64,000 nucleotides of DNA. It comes from Candidatus Latescibacterota bacterium. GTDB lineage: Bacteria > Latescibacterota > UBA2968. The notes under the pieces are model-generated. The model was not told where the DNA came from. It saw nothing but the letters and a program-made list of their open reading frames with translations, and did no database searches. Made by a program: the position numbers and the translations under genes. Position 1 is the stretch's first letter. Every line of letters begins with the position of its first letter. Below, piece after piece: positions 3 to 18,109 of the stretch. Location: assembly GCA_965205975.1 (NCBI GenBank), contig OZ242195.1, positions 3,488,001-3,552,000 on the forward strand, in the 5' to 3' direction.

Positions 3-56
3 GAGGAGGGATTTGGACTTACTCTTATCGGGGTCGCAAAGGAGGGAAATGCATGA
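3..56 (+). CDS. cmr3: 3' end of probable Cmr3 (partial, runs off window)
   Basis: Reads EEGFGLTLIGVAKEGNA*. The terminal GFG..G glycine loop is typical of Cmr3 RAMPs. Stop overlaps the next ATG (ATGA), upstream of cmr4. Confidence 0.55.
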   Translation, partial: EEGFGLTLIGVAKEGNA

Positions 57-1324
57 AGACTCTTATAACACCAGTCGGCACATCGCTCTTTACAAACTAT
101 CTTGACAAGAATGGAGACAGTGCCTTTAGCCACAATTATGAAACAATCGGAAAATCTCCTGCTTCGGAATGGAATGCGTATGATTATGAAATTGAGGATC
201 TAAAAACGTCCAGTCTTGAATTTATAAAACAAGAAAAGGATTCCGCATCTGCCGAACTTCAGAGTATCACTAAAATTCAAGACAAACTGAAAGAGGACCT
301 CAAGGTTCGTCTATTTGCCTCAGACACAATTGCTTCGCGATTGGCTGCGGAAATTTTGGCGGATGATACAGTGGCTTCGGTTTTAGGCGATAATATCTCT
401 GTCGAATTTGATACGCAAACAGATATGATCAAGGGGCTTCAGGTTGAAGATCCCAAAGTCTTTTCGAATGAAGGCATGACCAATCTGATACGAAAGATAG
501 ACGAAAATGCTGGAGGGTACTGGCCAGCACTTGCGATCAATATCACCGGAGGGTACAAAGCCACCTTGCCATATCTGACGATTTTAGCACAAGTCAAGCG
601 AGTTCCGCTTTACTACAACTTTGAGGATACTGACGCACTCATCAAAATTCCGCAGTCACCGTTGGTTATTGATTTTGGCTTGATTGAACGCCATTCGGAC
701 ATTCTCATGCAAATCCATGAGGGGATAGAAAATTGGTCGCAATTCAGAAGCCAACATTACCAAGCTGTTCAAGATTTGGAAGCATTTATTGAAATTGATG
801 GAAACTACGCTCTCTTGTCACCCATTGGCGAAATTTTTTGGGAGGAGCATCAAAGATACTTTATCGTCGAATTGCCAGGAGGAAGTTATTATAGCTATGA
901 TGGAGACAAACGTCAGTTAATCGATGCAGCTATTAAAGAGCTTTATGGACGGTTAGATACTGTTCTATCTGATACCTGTCTATTAGACAGTGACATGAAT
1001 CTTATACCTGACAAATGCTACCAAAAAATCCGCAATTTGGGACACAATGACGACTTGAATCACGGTGGACAAATTCCAAACCCGACAAAGCCAAAAAATT
1101 TGGATCGGGAAATCTTCATTTTCAAAGCGACAGGTGGAGTTCATAGACGCTTACTATATAACTTCGAGGTTAAGGAACAAAGGACTACTCGACTTAGAAT
1201 ATTCGATACCCTTTGTGAAGATTTCGATCATAACACGTATATTGCCGATTGGAAAAATAAATTTGGTGATGAAAATTTTCCTGATATCAACTTTGTCACA
1301 CACACATTTGAAATTCCTTCATAG
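53..1324 (+). CDS. CRISPR-associated CARF protein (APE2256 family) with wHTH and RelE-like C-terminal domain (Cami1-like)
   Basis: VGTSLFTN, SAELQS, SDT, GLQV..NL and INITGGYKA..YYNFE..IP CARF motifs; LSPIGE wHTH; C-terminal IFIFK..RLLYNF..LRIFD..H..Y resembles RelE. Confidence 0.8.
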   Translation: MKTLITPVGTSLFTNYLDKNGDSAFSHNYETIGKSPASEWNAYDYEIEDLKTSSLEFIKQEKDSASAELQSITKIQDKLKEDLKVRLFASDTIASRLAAEILADDTVASVLGDNISVEFDTQTDMIKGLQVEDPKVFSNEGMTNLIRKIDENAGGYWPALAINITGGYKATLPYLTILAQVKRVPLYYNFEDTDALIKIPQSPLVIDFGLIERHSDILMQIHEGIENWSQFRSQHYQAVQDLEAFIEIDGNYALLSPIGEIFWEEHQRYFIVELPGGSYYSYDGDKRQLIDAAIKELYGRLDTVLSDTCLLDSDMNLIPDKCYQKIRNLGHNDDLNHGGQIPNPTKPKNLDREIFIFKATGGVHRRLLYNFEVKEQRTTRLRIFDTLCEDFDHNTYIADWKNKFGDENFPDINFVTHTFEIPS

Positions 1325-1350: not shown

Positions 1351-2313
1351 ATGTTTAAACAAGCTAAACCCCTCTTTCTTATCGTCGAAACTCCACTCCA
1401 CGCTGGCAGCGGCAATGATCTTGGCATCGTTGATCTCCCGATCCAGCGGGAGAAGCATACGGATTATCCAAAAATCGAAGCATCCGGACTGAAGGGCAGC
1501 ATACGTGAAATTTTTAATGCTCAAAAAAATAAATCTGAAATAGAACTTGTATTTGGTTCTGAGCAAGGTGACTTACACGCAGGTGCTTTGGGATTTACCG
1601 ATGCACGTCTCTTGCTTTTTCCTGTCAAGTCGGTCAAAGGCGTGTTTGCCTATGTGACATGTCCCGCAGTTTTAGAGCGTTTCAAATACGACCTTTCCAT
1701 CTGCCAGCCGAACATTGTATTTGCTGACGATCTTCCCGGCAGTGATACGGTAACGACAGGGAGCGGACTCATTGTGGAAGATAGAAAAATTGTGCTGGAA
1801 GAATACACATTCGCGGTTAGTGAAAGCCAAGAATGTGATGCTGTTGCAGAGTGGATTGCGAAACAGGTTCTGCCACCGGATTCGGGCTATAACTATTGGC
1901 GCGATAAGATGAAACGGGACCTCGTGGTATTGAGCGATGATGATTTCCGAGATTTTGTGACGCTTTCGACAGAAGTCATTGCCCGCACCAAAATCGACAG
2001 TGAAACCGGTACCGTTGCAAAAGGTGCGCTGTGGTACGAGGAATACTTGCCGGCTGACTCTATTCTCTATTCGCTCGCCTTGACCACACCCATCTTTAAG
2101 GAAAATGACGCCGATAAAGGTATTTTCCAGTTGACCGATCAGGATAAAGAAAAGAAACACGATGAGTCGGAAAAGGTAATGGACTTCTTTGTGGATGGAT
2201 TGCCGAATGTCATTCAGATCGGTGGCAATGCAACCGTGGGTAAGGGTATAGTTCGGACACACGTTTATCAAAATGGAGGAGAAAACCATGCCACAAACTC
2301 CAACAATGCGTAA
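1351..2313 (+). CDS. cmr4: Type III-B RAMP Cmr4
   Basis: TPLHAGSG..GIVDLPIQRE, SGLKGS, DARLLLFPVKS, GALWYEEYLP, QIGGNATVGKG. Confidence 0.95.
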   Translation: MFKQAKPLFLIVETPLHAGSGNDLGIVDLPIQREKHTDYPKIEASGLKGSIREIFNAQKNKSEIELVFGSEQGDLHAGALGFTDARLLLFPVKSVKGVFAYVTCPAVLERFKYDLSICQPNIVFADDLPGSDTVTTGSGLIVEDRKIVLEEYTFAVSESQECDAVAEWIAKQVLPPDSGYNYWRDKMKRDLVVLSDDDFRDFVTLSTEVIARTKIDSETGTVAKGALWYEEYLPADSILYSLALTTPIFKENDADKGIFQLTDQDKEKKHDESEKVMDFFVDGLPNVIQIGGNATVGKGIVRTHVYQNGGENHATNSNNA

Positions 2314-2686
2314 GGGAATTGAACAAGGGCGTGCCAAGTATGCTTTTGAGGCAGTAAGCAGTGTTAATGGTGATAGATTGAAGAAAGAGTATAAATCCGC
2401 TGCAAAGAAACTCCCCGTTTTAATAAAAACGAATGGACTTGGGCAGTCTTTGGCATTCATAAAAAAAAGGAATAATGGGCACGACAGGCTATACGAACAA
2501 ATTGGAAACTGGCTCCAAGCCGTAGATACCAAACAGTTGGTTTCGACTGGCGAACTTGTGGAACAAGTCATCGAACTCAAATCACCCGTCTATCGACAAG
2601 TTACAGTCGAAACCCTCGCGCTACTCAATTGGATTCGCCGATTTGTCGATGGACTCATGGATGATGTGGAGGAGAATGATGCTTAA
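2288..2686 (+). CDS. cmr5: Type III-B small subunit Cmr5
   Basis: EQGRAKYA..EYKS..KKLPVLIKTNGLGQSLAF..Y..T.ETLALLNWIRRF; RBS GGAGGAG before ATG 2288. Confidence 0.93.
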   Translation: MPQTPTMRKGIEQGRAKYAFEAVSSVNGDRLKKEYKSAAKKLPVLIKTNGLGQSLAFIKKRNNGHDRLYEQIGNWLQAVDTKQLVSTGELVEQVIELKSPVYRQVTVETLALLNWIRRFVDGLMDDVEENDA

Positions 2687-3761
2687 TTTCCATCCATTGG
2701 ATACGAGGGAACTGGTTCGCTCAAATAATCAGATTGATAATTTCGCGTTGCGTTACCGACATTCCTTGCAGATTACTCGCGATGGTGAAAAATACAAATT
2801 TCAGCTTTCCGATCCGACGTTTAGTAAATCTTATGATGAATTGATTGAGCAGTTGCTGGAACGGCAAACAGAGCAACTCCTGCAATTTGTTATGCGTGGT
2901 ATCATGCTTTACTGCGTTGATGCAAGGGTTGATTGGCGACTAATTGTTGGCCTCGGCAGTGAGCATGTTCAAGAGACAAATATGACACTCCATCATATCT
3001 ATGGCATTCCGTACATTCCCGGAAGTGCTGTGAAAGGCGTGTTGCGGCATTGGTGGTTGCAAGAGAATTTCGACAATAACGAAAACAGAGCACTGAAAGA
3101 TGAAAATTTTCTCGCTCTCTTTGGAAGTCAAAACCGGCGCGGAGAAGTGCAATTTCTCGACGCTTATCCCGAAGAAGTCCATTTTGCGAAAGATATTATG
3201 AATCCTCATTATCCCGAATATTACAGTGGTAGCGCACCTCCAACAGATTCTCAAAATCCAAGACCTATAAATTTTTTAACTGTTGAGAAGACCGCCTTTC
3301 GGTTCGCTTTCTTAGCGAAGAAACAGGAACTTCTCGATAAACTTAAGGCGCGATTTGAAGATGTATTAGAACTGAAGGGCATCGGTGCGAAAACAGCGGT
3401 TGGTTATGGATATTTCCGAAATTTTGAAGATCAGACCGACAAAATTATTGACACATTCAAGCGTCAGCAACAAGCTGAACGGGAAGAAGCGGAAAGACAG
3501 CAAGAAGCCGAGAGATTGGCAAGTCTTTCTCCTGTTGAACAACTTGTCGAAGAATTGAACGGTCTCGCTGACAATTCTGTGGATGAAGCGCGTGTTACCG
3601 ACATCTACAACACAGAACTTCAATCTCTTGAAGGTGATGAGCAAATGATGGTCGCACAGGCATTGAAAGCTTATTGGGAACGTATCAATAAGTGGAGTGG
3701 CGGTTCGAGGAAACAGAGAACAAAGGTGCAAAAGGTTAAGTCAATTTTGGGAGAGAGCTGA
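2676..3761 (+). CDS. cmr6: Type III-B RAMP Cmr6 with C-terminal coiled-coil extension
   Basis: LIVGLG..ETNMTLHHIYGIPYIPGSAVKG, FLDAYP, DIMNPHY, PINFLTV, GIGAKTAVGYG; start set at ATG after GGAGGAG. Confidence 0.93.
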   Translation: MMLNFHPLDTRELVRSNNQIDNFALRYRHSLQITRDGEKYKFQLSDPTFSKSYDELIEQLLERQTEQLLQFVMRGIMLYCVDARVDWRLIVGLGSEHVQETNMTLHHIYGIPYIPGSAVKGVLRHWWLQENFDNNENRALKDENFLALFGSQNRRGEVQFLDAYPEEVHFAKDIMNPHYPEYYSGSAPPTDSQNPRPINFLTVEKTAFRFAFLAKKQELLDKLKARFEDVLELKGIGAKTAVGYGYFRNFEDQTDKIIDTFKRQQQAEREEAERQQEAERLASLSPVEQLVEELNGLADNSVDEARVTDIYNTELQSLEGDEQMMVAQALKAYWERINKWSGGSRKQRTKVQKVKSILGES

Positions 3762-4497
3762 CTATAGTAATCTGGCAAAAATTTTTGGTGAACGGGTGCG
3801 TGAAACAGGAGCAGACTTTTGTGCGATTAACGCGACAGGTGGCTATAAAGCCCAGATCGCCATTGCCGTTCTGATGGGCCAGGCACTCGACATTCCCGTA
3901 TATTACAAGCATGAACGCTTTGATGCCATTATTCCTTTTCCACCTATGCCTGTAGCACTCGATTTTTCGATCTGGCAACAGGCCAGTGGCATGTTTATGG
4001 TACTCAGCAAGGAGGGCATTGTTTCCTGGGAACAGTACCGTGAGGATTGGGATGAACGCTTTGAACCACTGGTCAACCGCGAGGAAATCGATGGCGAGGA
4101 CTATCTGGAACTCTCGGCGACGGGCCAGATCTTTCACGAGACCTTCCGAACCCGTTTTCAGCAGATAAAGGCCCATAGTCTTCCGCGATCAGCAACAGGG
4201 AATGAGAAGCAGACTCCCAATCTGGGCCACCATGGATACGGACAAGCACGAACTTCCATTTTGCGTTTTCTGCAAAAGCTCACAGATGAAGTGCCTTACG
4301 TCCGCTTTTGCCACTCAACGTATTGGAACCCGGACCTGCCTGAATCAAATCGGTTTCGGCCATCGGGTGGGGAAGTCCAGGGCATATACTCCAATGGAAC
4401 CTATTGCGTGAAATTTAAGGTGCATACAACATCAGATGATCAGGATGTATTACCCGGCATTGTGGCCGATCTCAATGACTGGATAGAGAAAGTTTAA
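3762..4497 (+). pseudogene. 5'-truncated APE2256-family CARF gene
   Basis: Begins mid-CARF (SNLAK..AINATGGYKAQ..VYYKHERF..PPMP) directly after the cmr6 stop. Lacks the VGTS/SAE/SDT half and a credible start. Confidence 0.7.
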
Positions 4498-4699
4498 AAG
4501 CGCGTTCGCAGGGGTGTCAGACCTGTCTTGCTTCAATTAGAACAAGTACCTATTTTGCAAGTTATAGACCCATTCAACCCGGTGGATGCGACCCACCTGC
4601 GCCGGTCAATGTCACACTGGCAGTTTGAGCGTGTAGAAAACAAGAGGCGTGAGGATTAGAGGTATTTCCTCATGTTCTGGTGGGTCGCAAATTTCTAAC

Positions 4700-4834
4700 T
4701 TTTTGCAGGAGTGTGTATTATGAACAGAGAATCGAAAGCAATTTTTCATTTTTGGAAGGATTTTGTATGTCAAAATGGCCTGAGTCGCAAACCGCCTTGT
4801 AACTATCTGCAACAGAGGGAATAACACAGACGGT
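4700..4834 (+). promoter_or_regulatory. CRISPR leader
   Basis: AT-rich non-coding segment directly 5' of the first repeat; the degenerate repeats are at the opposite end. Confidence 0.65.
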
Positions 4835-7800
4835 ATCAGGAAGGATTACCCGACTACTGGGGTATTGAAACCGTATCTTCGAGATGGATCGACATGGGGC
4901 GACTGTAATTGTAAATCAGGAAGGATTACCCGACTACTGGGGTATTGAAACTCATTGTCAAGAGGTGGGGCATCTGTGTTGGGGTTGATTGTCCAATCAG
5001 GAAGGATTACCCGACTACTGGGGTATTGAAACTCTACTTGTCCCCGTCAATCACGCGGACGATTGTTGCGTATCAGGAAGGATTACCCGACTACTGGGGT
5101 ATTGAAACTATCTCGGCATTGCGACCTTGCCACATAATTTGTCTCTTCATCAGGAAGGATTACCCGACTACTGGGGTATTGAAACTCTTTTGAGTTTTTG
5201 TGCAAATCAAATAAGGTTCTGTGTATCAGGAAGGATTACCCGACTACTGGGGTATTGAAACATATCAACGTTGAATTTGATCGTAAACAGGTGGCATTGT
5301 GTATCAGGAAGGATTACCCGACTACTGGGGTATTGAAACTTAGAACACGTCACAGAATGCCCCCAGGGGCACAGAAACATCAGGAAGGATTACCCGACTA
5401 CTGGGGTATTGAAACTTATATATCCTTTTTGATATTCGTGCTTCTCTACGTCCATCAGGAAGGATTACCCGACTACTGGGGTATTGAAACCGGATAGCTT
5501 TGTTGTTGATCGTGGACTTCGTCTGTTCCGATCAGGAAGGATTACCCGACTACTGGGGTATTGAAACGTAAAGTCTAATCGTCAAAGTTGGACCTTCTGA
5601 GTATATCAGGAAGGATTACCCGACTACTGGGGTATTGAAACGATTATCGGTCACCGTCTATGCACCCTTGAGTGGTTGGCCGATCAGGAAGGATTACCCG
5701 ACTACTGGGGTATTGAAACTCATTCTTCTGTCATTCGCCATACAATGTTCCCCTTTATCAGGAAGGATTACCCGACTACTGGGGTATTGAAACCAGTCCG
5801 ATCATTGTAAAAGCCATTCATGATGTCTTTATCAGGAAGGATTACCCGACTACTGGGGTATTGAAACGAACAATGAGGCAATTTTCCAAACTGATCGGGG
5901 GTCAAAAACATCAGGAAGGATTACCCGACTACTGGGGTATTGAAACTATCCAGCAACTCGCCCCAACTTCACTCTGAACCTTGCGCCAAATCAGGAAGGA
6001 TTACCCGACTACTGGGGTATTGAAACCTCTCTATTGTCGCCGCACCTGATTGTCGTTGAATCCATCAGGAAGGATTACCCGACTACTGGGGTATTGAAAC
6101 TTAAATCTCTCATCACGCGACCTCATTACGCCGTACCACATCATCAGGAAGGATTACCCGACTACTGGGGTATTGAAACCAAACGTTGCCGCGCGCCGTT
6201 CTTGCACAATTTGACGCATCGATCAGGAAGGATTACCCGACTACTGGGGTATTGAAACCTGCGATTATTGCGTCGTGATCGGTCCAATGGTCGTTCGCTG
6301 ACATCAGGAAGGATTACCCGACTACTGGGGTATTGAAACTTGACTGCGATAAGACAGGCGTTGCCTGATTACGTGCGCTCATCAGGAAGGATTACCCGAC
6401 TACTGGGGTATTGAAACTTGACGGGTTAGCCGCATGCAAGCGGTCGGCTGCCATTATCAGGAAGGATTACCCGACTACTGGGGTATTGAAACCGGTTCAG
6501 CATCCGAATATCCCCCATAACGCCATGCAATATCAGGAAGGATTACCCGACTACTGGGGTATTGAAACTCTGTCGCTGCTGCTCACGCATAATCTGTGCC
6601 ATACCAATCAGGAAGGATTACCCGACTACTGGGGTATTGAAACTCAGACTACGAACTTGTAGGCCAGAGTGTTGTTATTATCAGGAAGGATTACCCGACT
6701 ACTGGGGTATTGAAACTTGTCCCAGAAGGGGCCACTTGGGCAAGCCCTGGACAACAAATCAGGAAGGATTACCCGACTACTGGGGTATTGAAACAATACT
6801 CAACTTCGTTCTTCATCACCCACAACCTTCAATCAGGAAGGATTACCCGACTACTGGGGTATTGAAACTTATGCATGCAGCGAAAGCCATAATAAAGGCG
6901 ATTTCGTCATCAGGAAGGATTACCCGACTACTGGGGTATTGAAACCGACCCCTTGCCGTCGCCATACCCACTGCCATCATCGTATCAGGAAGGATTACCC
7001 GACTACTGGGGTATTGAAACTTTGTGTGGGCTGAAACCAACACAACAGAAAGTTTTGACATCAGGAAGGATTACCCGACTACTGGGGTATTGAAACTCAC
7101 GCAGACCATCTAAGCTGTCGCACATCTCCTCGCCATATCAGGAAGGATTACCCGACTACTGGGGTATTGAAACCAAACTCTCGACCGAGCAAAACTCCCC
7201 GACGTTTTGGCTAATCAGGAAGGATTACCCGACTACTGGGGTATTGAAACCTTTTTTAATGCTCGGAAACCCTTGTTTTTCAACATTTTAATCAGGAAGG
7301 ATTACCCGACTACTGGGGTATTGAAACTTTTCAGGATGTTTTTCTTTCTTTGTTTTCCAACTTTTTCAATCAGGAAGGATTACCCGACTACTGGGGTATT
7401 GAAACTGATTTACGCGAAAAACTGCCCGTATGTTTTCGTTTTTTAATCAGGAAGGATTACCCGACTACTGGGGTATTGAAACTATTCGGCATATAGTGCT
7501 GGGAATATTGACCCAGTCATCAGGAAGGATTACCCGACTACTGGGGTATTGAAACTCGAGTTGCCCGGCTCAAAAAGCGGAAAGGAATACATGCATCAGG
7601 AAGGATTACCCGACTACTGGGGTATTGAAACCTTTGTTCGCGCAGGCTTATTCGCTGTTGATCGCTGTTGATCAGGAAGGATTACCCGACTACTGGGGTA
7701 TTGAAACTCACTTCTCAACCCACGCTTTGCGGCGGCGTTGCACCGCTGCATCAGGAAGGATTACCCGACTACTGGGGTATTGAAACAGTATTTTTTGATA

Positions 7801-7840
7801 TATGCCCGAATGGCCGTGCGTTCCGCTATATCAGGAAGGA
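4835..7840 (+). CRISPR. CRISPR array: 39 full 37-bp repeats ATCAGGAAGGATTACCCGACTACTGGGGTATTGAAAC plus a truncated 40th; 39 spacers of about 36-44 bp
   Basis: Repeats counted by eye from 4835 to 7786, partial repeat 7830-7840. TACCC/GGGTA hairpin and ATTGAAAC 3' end give the orientation. Confidence 0.98.
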
Positions 7841-7963
7841 ACGCGATGTGTGACTTCAAAACCGCCACATAGAAATACCGATAAAGTAGGTATAAGAAAG
7901 TCAAAACCACTGGATTACTGGCGTTGTCCTTGCGCGTGGCGGCTAACACCCTGCCGCAATGAC

Positions 7964-7988
7964 GGGCGAGGCATGCCTCGCCCCTACA
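7964..7988. repeat. GTAG-type REP palindrome (GGGCGAGGCATGCCTCGCCCCTAC)
   Basis: Perfect 20-bp palindrome plus CTAC (GTAG on minus strand); also at 8332 and 17995. Confidence 0.8.
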
Positions 7989-8074
7989 AAAATCCTTATT
8001 GCGCTGACAGCTGACCACTCATTGCTTGTTTTCTTGACCATTATTCAAAAGTCACACCTGACGTCAGGCATGAG

Positions 8075-8111
8075 GTCAGGAAAGATTACCCGATTACTGG
8101 GGTATTGAAAC
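8075..8111 (+). CRISPR. Solitary variant CRISPR repeat
   Basis: GTCAGGAAAGATTACCCGATTACTGGGGTATTGAAAC, 3 mismatches to consensus. Confidence 0.85.
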
Positions 8112-8292
8112 TGTGCTCGGATGTGCGTTTTTGCACAGATGCGTGCATTTTTGCACATCTGTTTCCACCTGATGAGCACCTGTTTGGGATCTTTTTGCAA
8201 AAAAACCGCGAAAAAGGAACAAAAAAAGAAAATCCTCATTTTTTTGAGGATTTTTTTCTTTGGCACGCTTTTTGCATATAAATAGGGCGATC

Positions 8293-8405
8293 ATCAGGAA
8301 GGATTACCCGACTACTGGAGTATTGAAACCTGGGCGAGGCATGCCTCGCCCCTACATCCACACCAACACCAGGAAGGATTACCCGCTTTATTGGGATCGT
8401 GAAAT
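8293..8405 (+). CRISPR. Mini-array: repeat (1 mismatch), 38-bp spacer, degenerate repeat, preceded by leader-like 8112-8292
   Basis: Repeat 8293-8329, spacer 8330-8367, degenerate repeat 8368-8405. The upstream AT-rich tract has CATTTTTTTGAGGATTTT, similar to CATTTTGGAAGGATTTT-type sequence in the main leader. Confidence 0.85.
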
Positions 8406-8413
8406 CTTTTTTC

Positions 8414-8442
8414 TTGACAAGTGAACATTTGAGCACTAATTT
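8414..8442 (+). promoter_or_regulatory. Sigma70-like promoter for CAPP-cas1-cas2
   Basis: TTGACA-17 bp-TAATTT about 100 bp upstream of ATG 8539. Confidence 0.55.
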
Positions 8443-8538
8443 TTGGGTTAAAATTAAAACCGCCCAAAAGAGTAAGGTAAGCCACAGGTTCCCCCCGCAT
8501 GTGGTTATATTTTTCTCCAAATAGAAAGGAATCTCCCC

Positions 8539-10464
8539 ATGACAACCCCTGCGATTGAACAGTCCCCCACATCTCTCGTAGATACCCTCTGTGAAAAAGC
8601 ACAGGTGCTTTTGGAAAAAAACAATGTGGATGGCGTAGAGGCACTCGCATCAGAAGCCAGTGCGCGCGACCCGGCGTGCAACCGCGCACATCAATTGATG
8701 CTCCGCGTAGCCCTCATCCGAGACGAACAGGACAGGGCACAAACATTGCTCAATCGGTGGCGCGATTTGCCGGTAGATGATGCGTTTGGTGAATGGGGTG
8801 TACTCGCAGAAGAAATGAACGACATACAGGCAGCCGTTGAAATCTATCAGGCGCACCTATCCCAATGTCCTGACGATGCCAAATCCCTATTTGGACTGGC
8901 AATGCTACACGCAGACCGCAATGAAACGGGCCTCGCGCAATCGCGCTTGCAAATCCTCATACAGCACCATGCAGACCATACAGAAGGAATCTTTGAACTC
9001 GCGCGCCTGTACGAAGAAGACGGCATGATGGGCCTCGCGCAAGAACTCTACGCACGGGTACTCGAACTCGACCCGGACCATGCGGGCGCACTTGCGGGCA
9101 AACAACTCGTCGGCGCACAATTGCAAACATCCCAAACCTTACCAGATGCAGAAATCAAAAACCACCCCGATAGTGCCGCCCTGATCCTCCGGCTATTTGC
9201 CGCGCGAAAAGACGTGTACGCACGCCAATGGATTGATGAAGACGGAAAAACCGGCTATGTCCCCGTGCGCGAACCCCTCACAGAAGACGCGATCCAATCC
9301 CATCTCCGGGGAGATACAACTGTAGGCGTCTATCCAATTTTTGACCGGGACAAAGCACAATTTTTGGCCCTGGATATCGACATCAAAAAAGAAGCCCTCA
9401 ACACAGCGCAGCAAAACAACACCTTAATGGATGCGTTGCGCGAACAAGTATGCAAAGACATCCGACGGGTTTGCGCGGGCTTCGCATCCCTCAACCTCCC
9501 CGTTCACATCGAAGACAGCGGAAACAAAGGCGCGCATATATGGCTCTTCTTTGAAAAACCCATCCGCGCATGCGACCTGCGCGCTTATGGCCACGCATTT
9601 GCAAAGCGATTTGGCCCAGCATCAGAAGATTTACAGTGGGAGTGGTTTCCCAAACAAGACGCCGTTGGGGAAGATGAACTTGGCAACCTGATCAAACTAC
9701 CACTCGGCATCCACCGCAAAACAGGACGCCGCGCGTTATTTATCGACACAGAAGGACACGCACTCGCAGATCAAGATCGGGTATTGCGCGACATCAAACC
9801 CATAGACACACAGGCTTATGACCATGCGGTCTCCCGCCTGGGCGGAGGAGAGACCCACACGCCCCTGAAACAAGTTGATCTGAAAAAAGCATTTCCAGAA
9901 TTTCAACCCATTATGCAAGGCTGTGCAGTCATTCGCGCACTCACAGAAAAAGCCTTTGCAACCGCCCATCTGGTACACATTGAACGCCATGTCTTAAAAT
10001 GCGTATTTGGGCATCTCGACGACCAGGGGCGCACCTTCTTACACGCGGTAATTGGCGCGTGTGCAGACTACAAAGCCGAAATAACCGATTATCAGATCGA
10101 ACGCCTGCATCCGCATCCCATTGGCTGTCCGAAAATCCGCAAACACCTGCCCGACCTCATTGAAACCGTCCCCTGCAACTGCGAATTTGACCTACCAGAA
10201 GGCGGGTACCCCTCTCCCTTGCTACATATCGACCCGGCATTTACCGCTGGCATGGGACGTGTGGATCAACCGCAAAACCGCGAAATAGTAGATCGCTACA
10301 TCACACTGCGCCAGCAAGCCGCACAGGTAATGGCCGACCTATCGCGTACAGAAGATGAAATGCGCGACATATTGCGCCACCGCAAAGGCAAAATCTCCAC
10401 AGGCGTCTGGGTAGTCACAGCGGATGACGCTGGACGATTGCAAATAGGCATTGAGGCGGTTTAA
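8539..10464 (+). CDS. CRISPR-associated primase-polymerase (CAPP): TPR + AEP + Cys-rich PriL-like C-terminal domain
   Basis: N-terminal TPRs; AEP motifs LALDID, SGNKGAH, EWFPKQ, LIKLPLG; C-terminal CAVI..PIGCPKI..CNC..YPSP; directly upstream of cas1-cas2. Confidence 0.88.
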   Translation: MTTPAIEQSPTSLVDTLCEKAQVLLEKNNVDGVEALASEASARDPACNRAHQLMLRVALIRDEQDRAQTLLNRWRDLPVDDAFGEWGVLAEEMNDIQAAVEIYQAHLSQCPDDAKSLFGLAMLHADRNETGLAQSRLQILIQHHADHTEGIFELARLYEEDGMMGLAQELYARVLELDPDHAGALAGKQLVGAQLQTSQTLPDAEIKNHPDSAALILRLFAARKDVYARQWIDEDGKTGYVPVREPLTEDAIQSHLRGDTTVGVYPIFDRDKAQFLALDIDIKKEALNTAQQNNTLMDALREQVCKDIRRVCAGFASLNLPVHIEDSGNKGAHIWLFFEKPIRACDLRAYGHAFAKRFGPASEDLQWEWFPKQDAVGEDELGNLIKLPLGIHRKTGRRALFIDTEGHALADQDRVLRDIKPIDTQAYDHAVSRLGGGETHTPLKQVDLKKAFPEFQPIMQGCAVIRALTEKAFATAHLVHIERHVLKCVFGHLDDQGRTFLHAVIGACADYKAEITDYQIERLHPHPIGCPKIRKHLPDLIETVPCNCEFDLPEGGYPSPLLHIDPAFTAGMGRVDQPQNREIVDRYITLRQQAAQVMADLSRTEDEMRDILRHRKGKISTGVWVVTADDAGRLQIGIEAV

Positions 10465-10521
10465 GAATTAAAAATTAAGAATTAAGGGGATCTCACGTCT
10501 TACCGGCTTTCGGGGTTTAAT

Positions 10522-11523
10522 ATGGCCGTACTCTACGTCACAGAAACCGGTGCCCAGGTGCGCCGCGAAGGCGAGCGATTGGCCGTGTGGAAAGGCAAGA
10601 AAAAACTCCACACATTGCCTGCGTATGACCTGCACCAGATGGTCTTATTTGGCAACATCGGAATAACACCTGCGGCAATGCACACCGCGCTGATGCAGGG
10701 CATCGACCTCGTATTACTCAGCACCACGGGCAGTTATCGCGGGCGACTCGTCGGACCGCAGGGCCGCAACGTAATACTGCGGCAAATGCAATACCGTCGC
10801 TACGAAGATGAAGATTTTCGATTGGGTGCTGCACGGGGATTTGTATCGGGCAAAATCCGCAACATGCGTACCCTCATCATGCGCCTTGCACGACGCCGAA
10901 ACCGGGACATTGCCCACACCGCACAGCGACTGCGCGCACTCTTAAAACAGATAGACCGCATTGACAATGCCGATGCACTGCGCGGAATCGAAGGTGCGGC
11001 AACAGCGACTTACTTCGGTGCGCTGAGCCAATTTTTACCCTCAGCATTTCCCTTTGTCAAACGCACGCGGCGCCCGCCCAAAGACGCGGTCAATGCCATG
11101 TTGAGCTTTGGCTATACGCTGCTGTCTTCGGACATGGAATCGGCTGTCTTGCGCGTGGGATTAGATCCCTATATCGGTTATCTGCATCTCGTGGATTACG
11201 GACGTCCCTCGCTCGCGCTGGACATGATGGAAGAATTTCGTCCGGTAATTGTAGATGCAATGGTACTGGACCTGCTAAATCACGGACAAATCAAAAAAGA
11301 GGACTTTGAACAGCGCGATGGGGGCGTATTTTTATATGGCGATGGACGACAGCAACTAATCCGCGCCTATCAGGACCGGGTCGCAACTGAAGTTCAATAT
11401 CTACAACCCAGTGGACAGGTACAAAAAGTGCCCTATCGCCAGTGTTTCGAGTTGCAAGCTCGCCGTCTCATCCGCATGTTGCGCGGCGAAGACGCGGCAT
11501 ATCAGCCATTTTTAATCCGATGA
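10522..11523 (+). CDS. cas1: CRISPR integrase Cas1
   Basis: LRGIEG..YF, RRPPKDAVNAMLSFGY, GLDPYIGYLH, SLALDMMEEFRP. Confidence 0.97.
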   Translation: MAVLYVTETGAQVRREGERLAVWKGKKKLHTLPAYDLHQMVLFGNIGITPAAMHTALMQGIDLVLLSTTGSYRGRLVGPQGRNVILRQMQYRRYEDEDFRLGAARGFVSGKIRNMRTLIMRLARRRNRDIAHTAQRLRALLKQIDRIDNADALRGIEGAATATYFGALSQFLPSAFPFVKRTRRPPKDAVNAMLSFGYTLLSSDMESAVLRVGLDPYIGYLHLVDYGRPSLALDMMEEFRPVIVDAMVLDLLNHGQIKKEDFEQRDGGVFLYGDGRQQLIRAYQDRVATEVQYLQPSGQVQKVPYRQCFELQARRLIRMLRGEDAAYQPFLIR

Positions 11524-11541
11524 GTATTGGAGATCAACGCA

Positions 11542-11823
11542 ATGCTTGTGGTAGTAGCCTACGACATAGCCGACAAACGCCGATTGCGGCGGGTGATGAA
11601 ACTCATGGAAAACTACGGATCGCGCCGACAGAAAAGCGTTTTTGAATGCAACTTGAATGAACGGCGATTTCTCGCGTTGCGGTCTAAAATGTCGGAATTG
11701 ATTGACCCGGAAGACGATCGCATCTGTTATTATCATCTATGTGCAGCATGCGAAAAGCGGGTTGAAGGTATATCCAAACGCGAACATCCCGTGCCAAAAC
11801 GCGAGGATTATGTGATTGTGTGA
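11542..11823 (+). CDS. cas2: Cas2
   Basis: VVAYDIAD.RR.RRV.K..ENYG.R.QKSVFEC..D.I..Y.LC..C. Confidence 0.96.
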   Translation: MLVVVAYDIADKRRLRRVMKLMENYGSRRQKSVFECNLNERRFLALRSKMSELIDPEDDRICYYHLCAACEKRVEGISKREHPVPKREDYVIV

Positions 11824-11835
11824 GCAGATACTTGT

Positions 11836-12987
11836 ATGAGGAAATACATGAAACCTGTCGTCGCGCACAGTGCCAACCCCTATTTACCAGCCACAGCGAC
11901 CTGGATATACGACCAGATCCGCGCATTGAAACGATATCGTCCCATCGTCCTCACACAAACGCGCCAGAACCTGGATCGCTTTCCCATAGAACCCGTCTTA
12001 TCCGCCGAAGATATCTCGCCCATTCGCAGAACAACCCTCCGCCTCATTCGCAAAATGCGCGGCACATACGCGGGCTATGAAAACTGGCTTTGCAAACACA
12101 ACGCCGCCCTCATCCACGCGCACTTTGGGCAAGAGGGATACCGATGTCTCTCCGCAAAACAGCGCACAGGCATCCCCCTGATCACCACCTTTTACGGCCT
12201 GGACGTATCGGCACTACCCCGGCAAAAAAAATGGCAAAAACGATACAAACGACTCTTTGCCGAAGGCGACCTCTTCCTCGTCGAAGGACCCTTCATGGGC
12301 GAACAACTCATCGCACTGGGATGCCCTGCCAACCGGGTAATCGTACAACATCTGGGCGTAGATCTCGACAAAATACCCTTCAGAACAGACCCCACACCCA
12401 AACAACCCATCGTATTGACATACAGCGTATTTCGAGAAAAAAAAGGATTGAAATACGCAATCCAGGCTTATGCGAAAATAGCAGAAAAATATCCGGACGC
12501 CCAACTGCGGATGATCGGCGACGGACCTTTGCGTCCACAACTACAAGCCGAAATACGAAATCTACACCTTGAAAACCGCGTAAAAATGCTCGGCCTGCTT
12601 CCCCATCCCACCGCACTTGAAGAACTAAAACGCGCGACAATCCTCCTCTATCCCAGCGTCACAGCATCAGATGGCGACACCGAAGGCGGTGCCCCTGTCG
12701 CCCTCATCGAAGCCATGGCAATGGGTATCCCCATCGTATCGTCTCAACACGCCGACATCCCCGAAGTCGTCATCGACAAAACCTGTGGCCTATTATATCC
12801 CGAACGAGATGTCGCGGGCCTCGCTGAGGGACTGGACACCCTCCTCAACTCCCCCGAACAATTTGGCCGCGCTGGCCGTGCCCATGTCGAAAAACAGCAC
12901 AACCTAGAGAGACAAGCCGAAAAATTAGAGGTGATTTATGATCGGGTTGTGATGAACCAGCCCCAAGCCCCAAAGTATAATCCTTGA
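11836..12987 (+). CDS. Glycosyltransferase family 4 (WcaL-like)
   Basis: IHAHFG, TTFYGLD, EKKG, IGDGPLR, GDTEGGAPVALIEAMAMG. Confidence 0.9.
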   Translation: MRKYMKPVVAHSANPYLPATATWIYDQIRALKRYRPIVLTQTRQNLDRFPIEPVLSAEDISPIRRTTLRLIRKMRGTYAGYENWLCKHNAALIHAHFGQEGYRCLSAKQRTGIPLITTFYGLDVSALPRQKKWQKRYKRLFAEGDLFLVEGPFMGEQLIALGCPANRVIVQHLGVDLDKIPFRTDPTPKQPIVLTYSVFREKKGLKYAIQAYAKIAEKYPDAQLRMIGDGPLRPQLQAEIRNLHLENRVKMLGLLPHPTALEELKRATILLYPSVTASDGDTEGGAPVALIEAMAMGIPIVSSQHADIPEVVIDKTCGLLYPERDVAGLAEGLDTLLNSPEQFGRAGRAHVEKQHNLERQAEKLEVIYDRVVMNQPQAPKYNP

Positions 12988-13051
12988 CATCAAAAACTAT
13001 TGATACAATTTTTGGCAGTGTTATTTCCACGCATTTAAAACGGAGACAAAG

Positions 13052-14425
13052 ATGCCTGAACACCCCAACCTCGTATTTGTATTCCCCGACGAATATCGCA
13101 AACAGGCCATGGGATTCATGAACGAAGACCCCGTAATAACCCCCAATATCGACCGATTTGCGTCTGAAAGCCTCGTATTAACCGACGCCGTAAGCACCAG
13201 ACCCGTATGCAGCCCATATCGGGCAATGCTCTTCACCGGACAATATCCCCACGCCAACGGCGTACTCAGCAACGTCAACTCCACCACAGTACAATACGAA
13301 AACTACCTGCGAGAAAACGCACGGTGCTTCTCAGACGTCTTGCACGACGCTGGCTACAACCAGGCGTACCTGGGCAAACTACACCTCGATCCCCCCAATG
13401 AGCAATATCAATACACAGAAGGACCGAGAGGAAATGGCGTCATCTGGGACTCATACACCCCACCGGGACCGCGCAGACACGGATATGACTTCTGGTATTC
13501 CTACGGCTGTTGCGACTGGCACTTCAACCCCCACTATTGGACCGGCAATGACCCCATTGAAAAGCGCATTGAACCGCGGGAATGGTCTCCCAAACACGAA
13601 ACCGACATCGCAATAAACTACATCCGCAACAAAGGTGGCAAATACAGAGATCCCAAAAAACCATTCTCACTCGTCATATCCCACAACCCACCGCACATGC
13701 CATTCAAACAAGTACCAGAAAAATACGTCGCCCAATACGGCGATGCCACCCATGAAGACCTCTTAACGCGCCCCAATGTCCCCGCAGACACAAGCGGCGA
13801 CAGCGCCCGCGAAAACGCGAAACACTACTTCGCCATGGTAACCGGCGTCGATGAAAACTTTGGACGCATACTGGACTGCTTAAAAACAGAGGGACTGGAA
13901 GAAGATACCATCGTAGTCTTCACCTCTGACCACGGTGAAATGATGGGCAGCCACGGCCGCATCGGCAAAACCGTACACTACGAAGAATCCTTCACCGTAC
14001 CATTTATCATCCGCTGGCCCGGCAAAATCACACCCGGCACAGATAACCTGTTAATCGGCACACCCGACTTAATGCCCACATTGCTCAACCTCATGGGCGT
14101 GGAACAGGTCCCCGACAGCGTCCAGGGAACGGATTACTCCGACATCCTCCTGGGTAAAAAAGGCACGCGCCCGACATCTGCACTCTACCTCAACGTAATG
14201 CCCGCCGACCCCGCTGGCGGATCGCGTGGCGTGCGCACACACCGGCACACGTATGTCGTCACGCGGACACCCGAAAGCGAAGAAACGATCCTCCACGACA
14301 ATGTCGCAGACCCCTATCAACTCCAAAACATCGCTGGCGATCATCCCGGCCTTGTGGCAGAACTTGAGGACGAAATGAACAACTGGTTGGAAAAAACTGG
14401 CGACCCATGGTTAACCCAAAAATAA
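13052..14425 (+). CDS. Sulfatase (S1 family)
   Basis: CSPYR..LFTG formylglycine motif, GKLHL, PPH, TSDHGEM. Confidence 0.92.
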   Translation: MPEHPNLVFVFPDEYRKQAMGFMNEDPVITPNIDRFASESLVLTDAVSTRPVCSPYRAMLFTGQYPHANGVLSNVNSTTVQYENYLRENARCFSDVLHDAGYNQAYLGKLHLDPPNEQYQYTEGPRGNGVIWDSYTPPGPRRHGYDFWYSYGCCDWHFNPHYWTGNDPIEKRIEPREWSPKHETDIAINYIRNKGGKYRDPKKPFSLVISHNPPHMPFKQVPEKYVAQYGDATHEDLLTRPNVPADTSGDSARENAKHYFAMVTGVDENFGRILDCLKTEGLEEDTIVVFTSDHGEMMGSHGRIGKTVHYEESFTVPFIIRWPGKITPGTDNLLIGTPDLMPTLLNLMGVEQVPDSVQGTDYSDILLGKKGTRPTSALYLNVMPADPAGGSRGVRTHRHTYVVTRTPESEETILHDNVADPYQLQNIAGDHPGLVAELEDEMNNWLEKTGDPWLTQK

Positions 14426-14435
14426 GGAGCAATAA

Positions 14436-15746
14436 ATGGCAGATTCCCCAAACCTCCTCGTCATACACACCGACGAACAAAGTTGCTGGACATTGAGCGC
14501 ATATGGCGGAACACTCGTCGAAACGCCCCACATTGACTCCCTGGCAAACGAAGGCGCAATCTTGACAAACTTCATGGTCAACGTCGCCGTATGCACCCCA
14601 TCCCGAGGCGTATTCCTCACCGGACGCTACGAACATGTACACGGCGCGTATCGCAACAACATCCCCCTCAACCGCGATGAAATCACATTTGCCCAGGCAT
14701 TAAAAGACCGCGAATACGACACCGGATACGCGGGCAAATGGCATCTGGACGGACCCCCGCGCCCCGGCTGGGTACACCCCGAACGCACAATGGGCTTTGA
14801 CGACGCCGAATACATGTTCAATCGCGGACACTGGAAAAAAATCGAAGACGTCGATATGGGCGATGTACAACCCACAGTGTTTAACTACAAAACCATGGGC
14901 GACGCAAAAACCTATCCAACGGACTGGCTAACCGAAAAAACCAACGAATTTTTGACTCGAGATCGAGAAAACCCGTTTTGTTTCATGCTCAGCATCCCCG
15001 ACCCCCATCCGCCATTTCCTGTACGCGCACCCTACGACACCAGGTACAACCCCGCAGACATGCCATTGCCCGACACGCGCAACGAAGAAAATCAGCCCAG
15101 CTGGGTACCCAAAAAACAGGCTCCGAAAGATGATATCTTACGCAAACACATGGCCCAATACTGCGGCATGGTCAAACTCATAGACGACTGCGTAGGCAGA
15201 ATGCTCGATGCACTGCGCGAAAAAGGCATCCTGGACAACACAATAGTCGTATTCACATCCGACCACGGCGAATACCTCGGCGAACACGGATTGATGGGCA
15301 AGAATCAACTCTATGAAACGGCGTATCGCGTCCCCATGTTAATCCGCTGGCCCGAAAAAATTCCGGCTGGCACGCGAATAGATCGCCTGGTTGGCTCCGT
15401 CGATTTCATGCCCACCATCCTGACCCTCATGGGATTTGAACCCTGTGGACGCGAACACGGACGAGATGCATCTGCACTCTTGCGCGGCGAAGAAACCGAA
15501 TGGGACGACATCTGTTATATACACCACGACCCGAACAGAGCCGGCGTATTCACCCCCAATTACGAACTCGCCTATGTAAAGGACCACGACGCCATTCTCT
15601 TTGATCGTCAAAACGATCCCGACCAGGTGAACAACCTGTTTGACGCCCCCGAACACCGGGAAATGATCGCAGCCATGACCGCCGACCTCGCCGCACATCA
15701 CGCATCGGTCAACTCGCCATCAGCAGAATGGTTGAAGGAACTATAA
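14436..15746 (+). CDS. Sulfatase (S1 family)
   Basis: CTPSR..LTG, GKWHL, DPHPP, TSDHGE. Confidence 0.92.
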   Translation: MADSPNLLVIHTDEQSCWTLSAYGGTLVETPHIDSLANEGAILTNFMVNVAVCTPSRGVFLTGRYEHVHGAYRNNIPLNRDEITFAQALKDREYDTGYAGKWHLDGPPRPGWVHPERTMGFDDAEYMFNRGHWKKIEDVDMGDVQPTVFNYKTMGDAKTYPTDWLTEKTNEFLTRDRENPFCFMLSIPDPHPPFPVRAPYDTRYNPADMPLPDTRNEENQPSWVPKKQAPKDDILRKHMAQYCGMVKLIDDCVGRMLDALREKGILDNTIVVFTSDHGEYLGEHGLMGKNQLYETAYRVPMLIRWPEKIPAGTRIDRLVGSVDFMPTILTLMGFEPCGREHGRDASALLRGEETEWDDICYIHHDPNRAGVFTPNYELAYVKDHDAILFDRQNDPDQVNNLFDAPEHREMIAAMTADLAAHHASVNSPSAEWLKEL

Positions 15747-15757
15747 CGGGAGGATCT

Positions 15758-16237
15758 ATGGCATTTGATTCACGGCTGCAACGAGACATAATGGGGCGGT
15801 TTGTAACGGGTGTCACCGTCGTCACCACGCGATACAAAAACGGCGACATAACCGGCATGACAGCCAATGCCGTCATGTCATTATCGCTGGACCCACCGCT
15901 CGTCGTGGTATCGGTCGATAAATCAGCCACCATGCACAGCGCCTTATCTGACGCACAGTGTTATGCAATCAACATCCTCACCCGAGAACAGGAACATCTA
16001 TCCAACCGATTTGCCATACCGGGACCAAAGGACTTTTCCGATCTGACATTGCGCGAAAGCAAAACAGGTGCGCCGATCCTGGAGGGAACACTGGGATATC
16101 TCGACTGCAAGATAGTGAACATCTTGCCAGCAGGCGATCACGACATGTTTGTAGGAGAAATACTGACGGGAGAATTGGGAGAGGGGAACCCGTTGCTCTA
16201 TTATGGAGGAAAGTATCGAAGTCTGGCAGTAGAATAA
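15758..16237 (+). CDS. Flavin reductase family protein
   Basis: GRFVTGVTVVTT, GMTAN, SLSLDPPL, GDH, PLLYYGG; RBS GGAGG before ATG 15758. Confidence 0.92.
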   Translation: MAFDSRLQRDIMGRFVTGVTVVTTRYKNGDITGMTANAVMSLSLDPPLVVVSVDKSATMHSALSDAQCYAINILTREQEHLSNRFAIPGPKDFSDLTLRESKTGAPILEGTLGYLDCKIVNILPAGDHDMFVGEILTGELGEGNPLLYYGGKYRSLAVE

Positions 16238-16239
16238 GC

Positions 16240-17955: not shown

Positions 17956-17992
17956 ATCGGTTATTCCTGAAAAAGGGACTGGGATCTGACCG

Positions 17993-18030
17993 CTGGGCGA
18001 GGCATGCCTCGCCCCTACATCCACACCAAC
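17993..18030. repeat. REP palindrome plus flank; exact protospacer of mini-array spacer 8330-8367
   Basis: ctgggcgaggcatgcctcgcccctacatccacaccaac is identical at both sites. Confidence 0.9.
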
Positions 18031-18109
18031 CACTAACTATTTGTTTTTCAAAAATAGGCTATCGCAACAGTTGTGTCAATTTGGTTCTCAGAACAGAAAG
18101 GAACTCGAA

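Follow-up and report, generated by a model that had tools for sequence, protein, structure and literature searches.

A self-matching spacer behind a predicted sigma-54 promoter in a type III-B CRISPR locus of Candidatus Latescibacterota

Introduction

How does a spacer identical to a site of its own chromosome come to stand beside the adaptation genes of a type III-B CRISPR locus, and what could it do there? The question is raised by a window of 64,000 nucleotides from a Candidatus Latescibacterota bacterium (contig OZ242195.1, positions 3,488,001 to 3,552,000). The window is the whole stretch of DNA analysed here, and positions without a prefix refer to it. Shortly before the CAPP, cas1 and cas2 genes, a 38-nt spacer repeats a site upstream of a K+ channel gene. 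The first-pass annotation described this spacer as part of a separate mini-array with a leader-like tract and proposed a retained guide aimed at host transcripts containing REP sequences. It overlooked a predicted sigma-54 promoter and a CARF activator, which changed our view of when the guide could be made.

Results

Organization of the locus

The genome is a single contig of 5.56 Mb, labelled G000 in our comparison of the genus. From the gene content read in the sequence, the CRISPR locus is of type III-B. Just upstream of the window (L021:9899-18056) lie a CARF-AAA+-HTH activator gene, cas6, a DUF1232 gene, cmr1, cas10 and cmr3, in this order. The window continues the cmr operon with a Cami1-type CARF-RelE effector gene (53..1324, + strand; PADLOC CARF7--CARF_RelE, E 1.7e-97) and cmr4, cmr5 and cmr6 (1351..3761, +). 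Then come a truncated CARF-DUF2103 gene, the main array, and CAPP, cas1 and cas2 (8539..11823, +), encoding a TPR-primase-polymerase (NF040561, E 1e-100), Cas1 and Cas2. The cas6, cmr1-6 and CARF-RelE genes are full-length. Cas10 keeps its GGDD motif at residues 424-431 and lacks the HD pair. Cami1 is described as a cA4-activated CARF-RelE protein in PMC11229360. The CARF-DUF2103 gene (3697-4497) adjoins cmr6, and its N-terminus is apparently cut in both G000 and G008.

The main array (4835..7786, +) comprises 39 identical 37-nt repeats and 38 spacers of 36-44 nt. The true acquisition leader (4560..4834, +) comes before it; in six relatives the leader shows 86-92% identity and ends alike next to the repeat. 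A genome search allowing up to 3 substitutions gave no further site for any of the 38 spacers. One of them (6796-6832) resembles a distant chromosomal island (31/33 with a gap; G000:C1:2776146-2776178 and 2779883-2779921). That island is also matched by a spacer of G016 (39/39), and G000:C1:3045073 by a spacer of G020 (39/41). These chromosomal sites are possibly resident mobile DNA.

The last array repeat is split, leaving 7830-7840, by the insertion of a 224-bp MITE-like element (7841..8064) with terminal inverted repeats. This element has many copies across the genus and bears another REP copy at 7962-7999, which matches the spacer at 28/38 and is not a promoter. Its terminal repeat also flanks a deleted transposase fragment upstream of cmr1 (L021:13630-14091). 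Beyond the element lies repeat R0 (8075..8111, +), with 3 mismatches and an intact stem. The tract that had been called leader-like begins at the first base after R0. Hence the supposed separate mini-array is more plausibly the severed end of the main array. The rest of the described layout before CAPP-cas1-cas2 stands, with repeat R1 (8293..8329, +), the spacer (8330..8367, +) and the degenerate repeat R2 (8368..8405, +); the tract itself has to be reassigned, as a sigma-54 promoter. In what follows, the position delimited by R1 and R2 is called the slot. An Rfam search gave no match within 4400-18300. The stretch is partly present in sponge metagenomes.

The locus is variable within the genus. 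The interference module is exchanged while repeat, cas6 and promoters stay constant: cmr genes are found in G000 and G008, and Csm-like gene strings, judged from ORF sizes and sequences, in G013 (L026:4958-11132) and G015 (L024:559-7570; see also L049-L050). Further interference modules occur in G015, G016, G019 and G020. The CAPP-cas1-cas2 block is missing from G008 and the whole locus from L080. Downstream of cas2, G019 (L031) and the related strain found in run X5 have one more repeat, so that CAPP-cas1-cas2 is itself bounded by repeats. The spacer of that second G019 mini-array matched nothing except itself in 5 genomes.

Whole genes also lie between CRISPR repeats in relatives (L026:16204-16853 and L026:14616-15784 in G013; L022:12500-16837 and 17142-18235 in G016; L005:1826-1999, minus strand, in G020). 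One such insert of 648 bp opens with a ribosome-binding site and closes 1 base past the stop codon. Other cargo includes a dockerin-like protein, a dynamin-like pair, a PIN toxin-antitoxin pair with DUF4926 and a 55-codon hydrophobic ORF. Arrays of relatives have in addition been invaded by a group II intron (L022:9497-11933, G016) and a DDE transposase (L030:14898-16320, G019).

A predicted sigma-54 cassette precedes the slot

The former leader-like tract is a 181-bp segment (8112..8292, +) placed exactly between R0 and R1. Its end is unlike that of the true leader; in 7/7 loci the main array is preceded by one conserved leader end. A role as acquisition leader, or as a leader of reverse orientation, was rejected: the end is unrelated, and decay and insertions cluster at the tract's end of the array.

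The segment has the features of a sigma-54 enhancer-promoter cassette. A -24/-12 element (8261..8276, +) is preceded by two tandem palindromes of the GTGCA-N4-TGCAC type (8123..8156), which are candidate activator binding sites at a distance within the 80-150 bp usual for such sites. The genome has rpoN, with an RpoN box. The assignment uses the general sigma-54 consensus and site distances, and the predicted start at about 8287, 6 nt before R1, presumes a usual spacing between element and start. Between palindromes and promoter lies an AT-rich hairpin with flanking T runs (8229..8254), possibly a main-array terminator or a DNA-bending tract. Region 8220-8265 folds with -16.2 kcal/mol (z -3.9), and a scanner called it terminator-like on the minus strand only.

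The arrangement recurs within the locus. A pattern derived from the tract alone found 5 sites in the genome: two in the tract, one before cas6, one before the DUF1232-cmr operon and one elsewhere. With a refined motif, which was shaped on the three locus sites, a palindrome stands 60-190 bp upstream of 3/94 sigma-54-like sites, all three in the CRISPR locus. Paired palindromes occur at three places in 5.56 Mb, again all in the locus, where about 0.05 would be expected. Across the genus, the cassette is present at full length in 5/21 genomes (83-90% identical), and 5/21 retain the slot promoter together with two palindromes. It lies exactly between two repeats in G000, G016, G019 and G020, comparable to the gene-sized inserts in arrays of relatives. 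The predicted cassette is the conserved feature of the slot. The cas6 promoters of G008 and G013 have no detectable palindromes, which counts against the shared regulon.

The DUF1232 gene (116 aa, L021:12990-13340) stands first after the second sigma-54 promoter in G000, G008, G015, G019, G020, L056 and L057; in G016 it follows cas6. From its position, the DUF1232 protein is a candidate induced factor. Nearer to CAPP, a possible sigma-70 promoter (8414..8442, +) has a TTGACA box and a weak -10. It is weak overall, conserved by eye in 6/6 loci, and received no call from the scanner. An imperfect palindrome (8420-8437) between its -35 and weak -10 is kept in 6/6 loci and is a possible repressor site.

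A candidate activator with a CARF sensor

The gene just outside the window that opens the upstream part of the locus encodes a 554-residue protein with Cas_NE0113, Sigma54_activat and HTH_8 domains. Walker A and B and the other ATPase motifs are present, and the HTH at the C-terminus is short. The canonical sigma-54 contact loop is GAFTGA. Here it reads GAYSGQ, and homologues have GAYTGQ or GAFTGA-like loops. Recognition helices vary among homologues although the palindrome is conserved. The loop, the short HTH and the varying helices speak against the predicted role.

Several searches bear on the sensor domain. A comparison of residues 9-210 with 48,161 solved chains gave the cA6-bound Cad1-CARF as the sole match among those listed (Z 13.3, rmsd 3.7, 158 aligned), and a profile search hit a CARF-deaminase at E 8e-4. 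A phmmer search of the CARF part against the PDB found nothing, and Foldseek returned matches to the ATPase and none to the CARF part; a CARF model folded from the single sequence was of poor quality (pLDDT 51) and was set aside. The protein combines a CARF fold akin to cOA binders with a locus whose Cas10 palm motif, GGDD, is kept, and its ligand would most likely be cOA. Against cOA-driven activation, NE0113-type CARFs are also annotated as ring nucleases.

The N-terminal domain is near full length in 8/21 genus genomes and in 0/10 other family members. The CARF-ATPase fusion is common to about 100 close homologue clusters. A profile search added six remoter homologues, from among its 150 best-ranked matches, in which both the CARF and the ATPase domain recur. 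A metagenome scan kept 80 loci, one of which carries a full-length fusion, on a short contig where no cas genes were seen. The PADLOC profile RtcR_PspF2 matches residues 233-552 only. Since a profile of that name exists, the architecture is at least catalogued.

Slot repeats are defective and slot contents differ between strains

R1 differs from the array repeat at 1/37 positions. This G>A change at repeat position 27, a position invariant in 296 array repeats, places a C-A mismatch in the 5-bp stem and leaves the 8-nt tag intact. In silico, stem pair probabilities drop from 0.79-0.91 to 0-0.36. In R2 the 3' half is decayed and the tag lost, and G016 has the same decay without a spacer. The first-pass claim that both repeats had diverged strongly while the spacer had not does not hold: with a single change in R1 and an R2 decay common to the spacerless G016, the contrast between decayed repeats and a preserved spacer vanishes.

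Among 41 genomes searched for the syntenic slot, five relatives have it. In 4/6 genomes the 5-bp stem of the first slot repeat is broken, and in 2/6 its tag is changed, with different changes each time. A stem or tag defect is thus found in 6/6 slot genomes, against 6/296 repeats before ordinary spacers, which is a pattern rather than a test because the genomes are kin and not independent. The 38-nt spacer occupies the slot in G000. The slot is empty in G013 and G016; the related strain of run X5 likewise holds no spacer there, just a single repeat. G015 and G019 carry a 101-103-nt mosaic of host repeats that includes a multi-copy one. G020 has a 174-nt stretch with the 55-codon hydrophobic ORF, for which no source was found among 21 genus genomes. 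The single slot repeat of G016 resembles a hybrid of R1 and R2. G008 has a III-B system and the target site and has lost cassette, slot and CAPP-cas1-cas2.

The spacer is therefore present in 1/6 slot genomes and absent from 5/5 relatives as well as from the X5 strain. The conservation expected of a guide retained by selection was not observed, and the slot repeats are defective in all six genomes.

The spacer was copied from a site upstream of a K+ channel gene

The spacer equals 17993-18030 at 38/38, and identity stops at both spacer boundaries, as first reported. Genome-wide, the 38-mer has 2 exact copies; the count stays at two when up to 3 mismatches are allowed and is three at 4-6, the third site matching at 34/38. 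Its palindromic core, by contrast, has 33 exact copies. A full 38-mer acting as a standard mobile unit was ruled out by its occurrence in only 2 copies, and the same ends do not recur at many loci; only the 24-nt REP core is multi-copy. The length of 38 nt falls inside the range of the array spacers, and the R1 tag and the start of R2 abut the spacer directly.

The protospacer (17993..18030, - strand) consists of REP and a unique flank. We confirmed its position 38-75 nt upstream of the channel/RCK start codon (ATG 17955), in the predicted 5' UTR. A sigma-70-type promoter (18051..18079, -; TTGACA-17-TATTTT, 10/12), whose hexamer regions align in relatives, lies upstream of the protospacer, so that RNA complementary to the guide is predicted. 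The flank matches the tag at 3/8, as had been noted. These matches fall at -6 to -4, and none of -1 to -3 pairs. Promoter and flank together predict a complementary transcript with an unpaired tag flank. A coding role of the protospacer was rejected: the frame is open to GTG 18033 in G000, but a stop lies just before the ATG in 4/4 aligned relatives.

The orthologous channel site matches at 38/38 in G003 and 37/38 in G008 and is absent in G015, G016, G019 and G020. From the latter four, the target REP had first seemed strain-specific, an idea dropped once the site was seen in G003 and G008. Outside G000, a 31-nt pattern occurs at the orthologous channel locus only (21 genus genomes). Since relatives carry the target at the orthologous position, the spacer was copied from it, which agrees with the acquired origin first proposed; on this distribution the target site is the older of the two. 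The perfect identity was also considered as a sign of selection. This was rejected, because the target is 38/38 in G003 too, where the channel gene is 92% identical to that of G000, and R1 has one change. A viral source was likewise discarded: five viral contigs carry a 26-nt core, yet only 26-31 of 38 positions match.

Leader-adjacent integration with repeat duplication has left no sign at the slot, where the tract end differs from the leader end and the 3' halves of R1 and R2 differ. The chance of a REP core in a random 38-nt window is about 1e-4 to 2e-4. Being so rare, such a capture requires a bias. Across seven loci, 1/293 spacers bears the REP motif.

Short-read contigs support the assembly. 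Those of run X1 span 8024-8359 and 8338-11806 with zero differences and extend 30 nt across both spacer junctions, although X1 may be the source of the assembly. Sampled words of 8112-9100 are recovered at 98-99% in two samples from a single study. In two RNA runs, 4-6% of sampled words of the stretch are present.

Predicted folding and pairing of the guide

Positions 3-22 of the spacer form a perfect palindrome. As first suggested, it could fold the guide: the predicted 8-bp hairpin has -16.5 kcal/mol (z -3.9). No other of the 293 tag-plus-spacer RNAs compared across seven loci folds as stably, and an equally stable fold is found in 198 of 20,000 random genomic 38-mers. The 3' seed region stays unpaired, and the guide-target duplex remains favourable after unfolding of both hairpins (-31 to -46 kcal/mol). 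With a free seed and a favourable duplex, the guide may still be active despite its fold. In the Cmr complex of T. thermophilus, the seed lies at the guide 3' end and cOA output requires pairing of positions 1-7, as described in PMC8376896. Over 66 REP-core strand-sites, positions 1-7 of the guide pair only with the spacer itself and with one target; one other REP site nearly satisfies the seed.

With this pairing limited to a single target, REP-wide surveillance is unlikely. The proposed REP/RAYT surveillance would also need a RAYT partner. A search for Y1_Tnp/RAYT (PF01797) in G000, which is 98% complete, was negative, although a divergent RAYT could escape it. The six Y1 proteins of relatives have no tblastn match in G000 and no such REP beside them.

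Discussion

How a self-spacer could be tolerated

We consider it reasonably probable that the spacer is an accidental self-capture, tolerated in a muted slot that heads a probably cOA-induced CAPP-cas1-cas2 transcript. CAPP-Cas1-Cas2 would have captured the hairpin-forming REP site in the channel 5' UTR, 9.6 kb away. The slot repeats would be remnants of the array tail, now in the 5' leader of the CAPP-cas1-cas2 transcript. Entry of a spacer at a site without a leader end counts against this reading; ectopic integration or recombination of a repeat-spacer unit is assumed, and PMC8860593 reports that such units can move independently of adaptation.

Several mutings together could let the cell tolerate the self-spacer. 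The sigma-54 promoter ahead of the slot would be off without its activator, the broken R1 stem would be a poor substrate for Cas6, R2 is decayed, and self-folding of guide positions 3-22 would mute the slot further. This muting may be incomplete, given the intact tag, the free 3' seed and the favourable duplex. On infection, cyclic oligoadenylate made by Cas10 would switch on the CARF-AAA+-HTH activator. The activator would then drive the sigma-54 promoters of slot and CAPP-cas1-cas2, of cas6 and of the DUF1232-cmr operon, so that infection would induce CAPP-cas1-cas2.

Other readings of the slot

The predicted promoter also allows a use for the guide. cOA would act through the activator to express the slot guide, which would lead Cmr to the constitutive channel mRNA and hence to more cOA, a positive feedback ending in dormancy through CARF-RelE. 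Such an inducible self-guide would amplify the alarm by making a housekeeping mRNA a standing Cas10 trigger while acquisition genes are being induced. The self-target would be safe solely because the slot is silent until infection, and the slot would be an alarm-switched expression cassette that other strains load with other cargo, for instance the 55-codon hydrophobic ORF. The predicted start so close to R1, the intact tag, unpaired at -1 to -3, and a target predicted to be transcribed are consistent with this, and so are a single-stranded Cmr seed at the guide 3' end (PMC8376896) and full-length cas6, cmr1-6 and CARF-RelE beside a Cas10 with GGDD. We nevertheless find an amplifying guide rather improbable: the spacer is confined to one of six slot genomes, the R1 stem is broken at an otherwise invariant position, positions 1-7 needed for cOA overlap the hairpin, and G008, with III-B and target, yet lost the slot. 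Still further from the data is the main idea of the first-pass annotation, a constitutive regulatory guide that lowers channel mRNA or surveys REP transcripts. A perfect match in a predicted 5' UTR and 33 exact REP cores suggested it; we give it very little credence, because the promoter is of sigma-54 type and not constitutive, the spacer is not conserved, and other REP copies fail positions 1-7 and, one site aside, the seed. Full pairing with an unprotected flank would moreover predict toxic cOA signalling and not quiet silencing.

That the 38-mer arrived without Cas1-Cas2, through gene conversion or in the form of a mobile REP unit, is unlikely. In its favour are the multi-copy host repeat that fills the slot in G015 and G019, the MITE that splits the neighbouring repeat, and the approximate coincidence of the spacer with the segment that distinguishes the channel UTR between clades. 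This reading accounts poorly for a 38-mer with only two copies and an exact fit from tag to repeat at normal spacer length. The failure to find a RAYT in G000 and the REP motif in just 1/293 spacers also speak against it. An assembly artefact fusing two distant pieces might be suspected wherever an exact 38-bp repeat occurs 9.6 kb apart in a metagenome-assembled chromosome. It is largely refuted, to the point of being hardly credible, by X1 contigs that span both junctions by 30 nt and by the 98-99% of sampled words found in two samples.

Relation to known systems

Adaptation in the III-A system of S. thermophilus takes hairpins, including those of host 5' leaders, with self-targeting as a possible side effect (PMC8860593). 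The present spacer resembles the products of this hairpin-biased adaptation (PMC8860593; reviewed in PMC9048733) in that its source is a host palindrome within a transcribed 5' leader and it is complementary to the mRNA. The precedent is a III-A system without CAPP, whereas here, in a III-B system with CAPP, one fixed spacer follows a sigma-54 promoter at the tail of the array and is no fresh uptake at the leader end. The slot also shares with the cr-like mini-arrays of Shmakov et al. (bioRxiv 10.1101/2023.03.03.530964) two repeat-like sequences around one spacer, in the gap between array and cas genes. As described in that preprint, those mini-arrays are mostly of type I, conserved and partly complementary to cas promoters, and the type III ones were judged degraded, with no targets found. 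Unlike them, the spacer here belongs to a type III system, is fully complementary to a host UTR, is not conserved (1/6), and has a target and a promoter of its own; partial complementarity to a cas or cargo promoter was not found. Our literature search found no REP-targeting type III mini-array.

In its predicted parts, CARF sensor, sigma-54 ATPase, HTH and upstream sites, the activator resembles RtcR and RtcR-like proteins (PMC4012209, PMC11090510). It differs from RtcR in its sensor, of the NE0113/CARF5 kind with a fold closest to Cad1-CARF among the matches listed, and in its predicted regulon of cas6, cmr and CAPP-cas1-cas2 in place of the rtcBA or restriction genes described in those sources. 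Coupling of cOA to transcription of adaptation and cmr genes is reported for Sulfolobus Csa3a/Csa3b (PMC7480081) and for CalpL-CalpT-CalpS (PMC11229360). Csa3 is an archaeal CARF-HTH protein without an ATPase, whereas an ATP-driven enhancer-binding protein with sigma-54 is predicted here; CalpS, according to PMC11229360, is released by proteolysis, unlike the predicted sigma-54 route. The CAPP genes follow the CAPP-TPR-Cas1-Cas2 module of PMC8211822, in which TPR-PrimPol, cas1 and cas2 stand beside a type III array, and differ from the module as described there by the sigma-54 cassette and repeat-bounded slot upstream. The literature searched gave RtcR and restriction-linked homologues only, and no report of type III cas genes under the control of a CARF sigma-54 activator. 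The text and three searchable supplements of the 2025 classification place transcriptional regulators among cOA effectors and do not name a CARF sigma-54 activator, and the cOA-effector survey PMC11229360 states that regulators were set aside. Primed-like adaptation by type III systems is listed as an open question in PMC9048733.

Implications

Taken alone, the self-spacer is probably a tolerated accident that shows how a type III guide predicted to be lethal can persist. If the guide were loaded after induction, it would be an RNA-level alarm amplifier. The setting outweighs the spacer: a CARF-sigma-54 regulon of three promoters would span crRNA processing, interference and acquisition. If true, this regulon would add to Csa3 and CalpS another path by which cOA reaches gene expression, and would offer type III systems a concrete means to raise spacer uptake on target detection. 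With the protein, the three promoters and the palindromes defined, cOA-induced adaptation would be directly testable.
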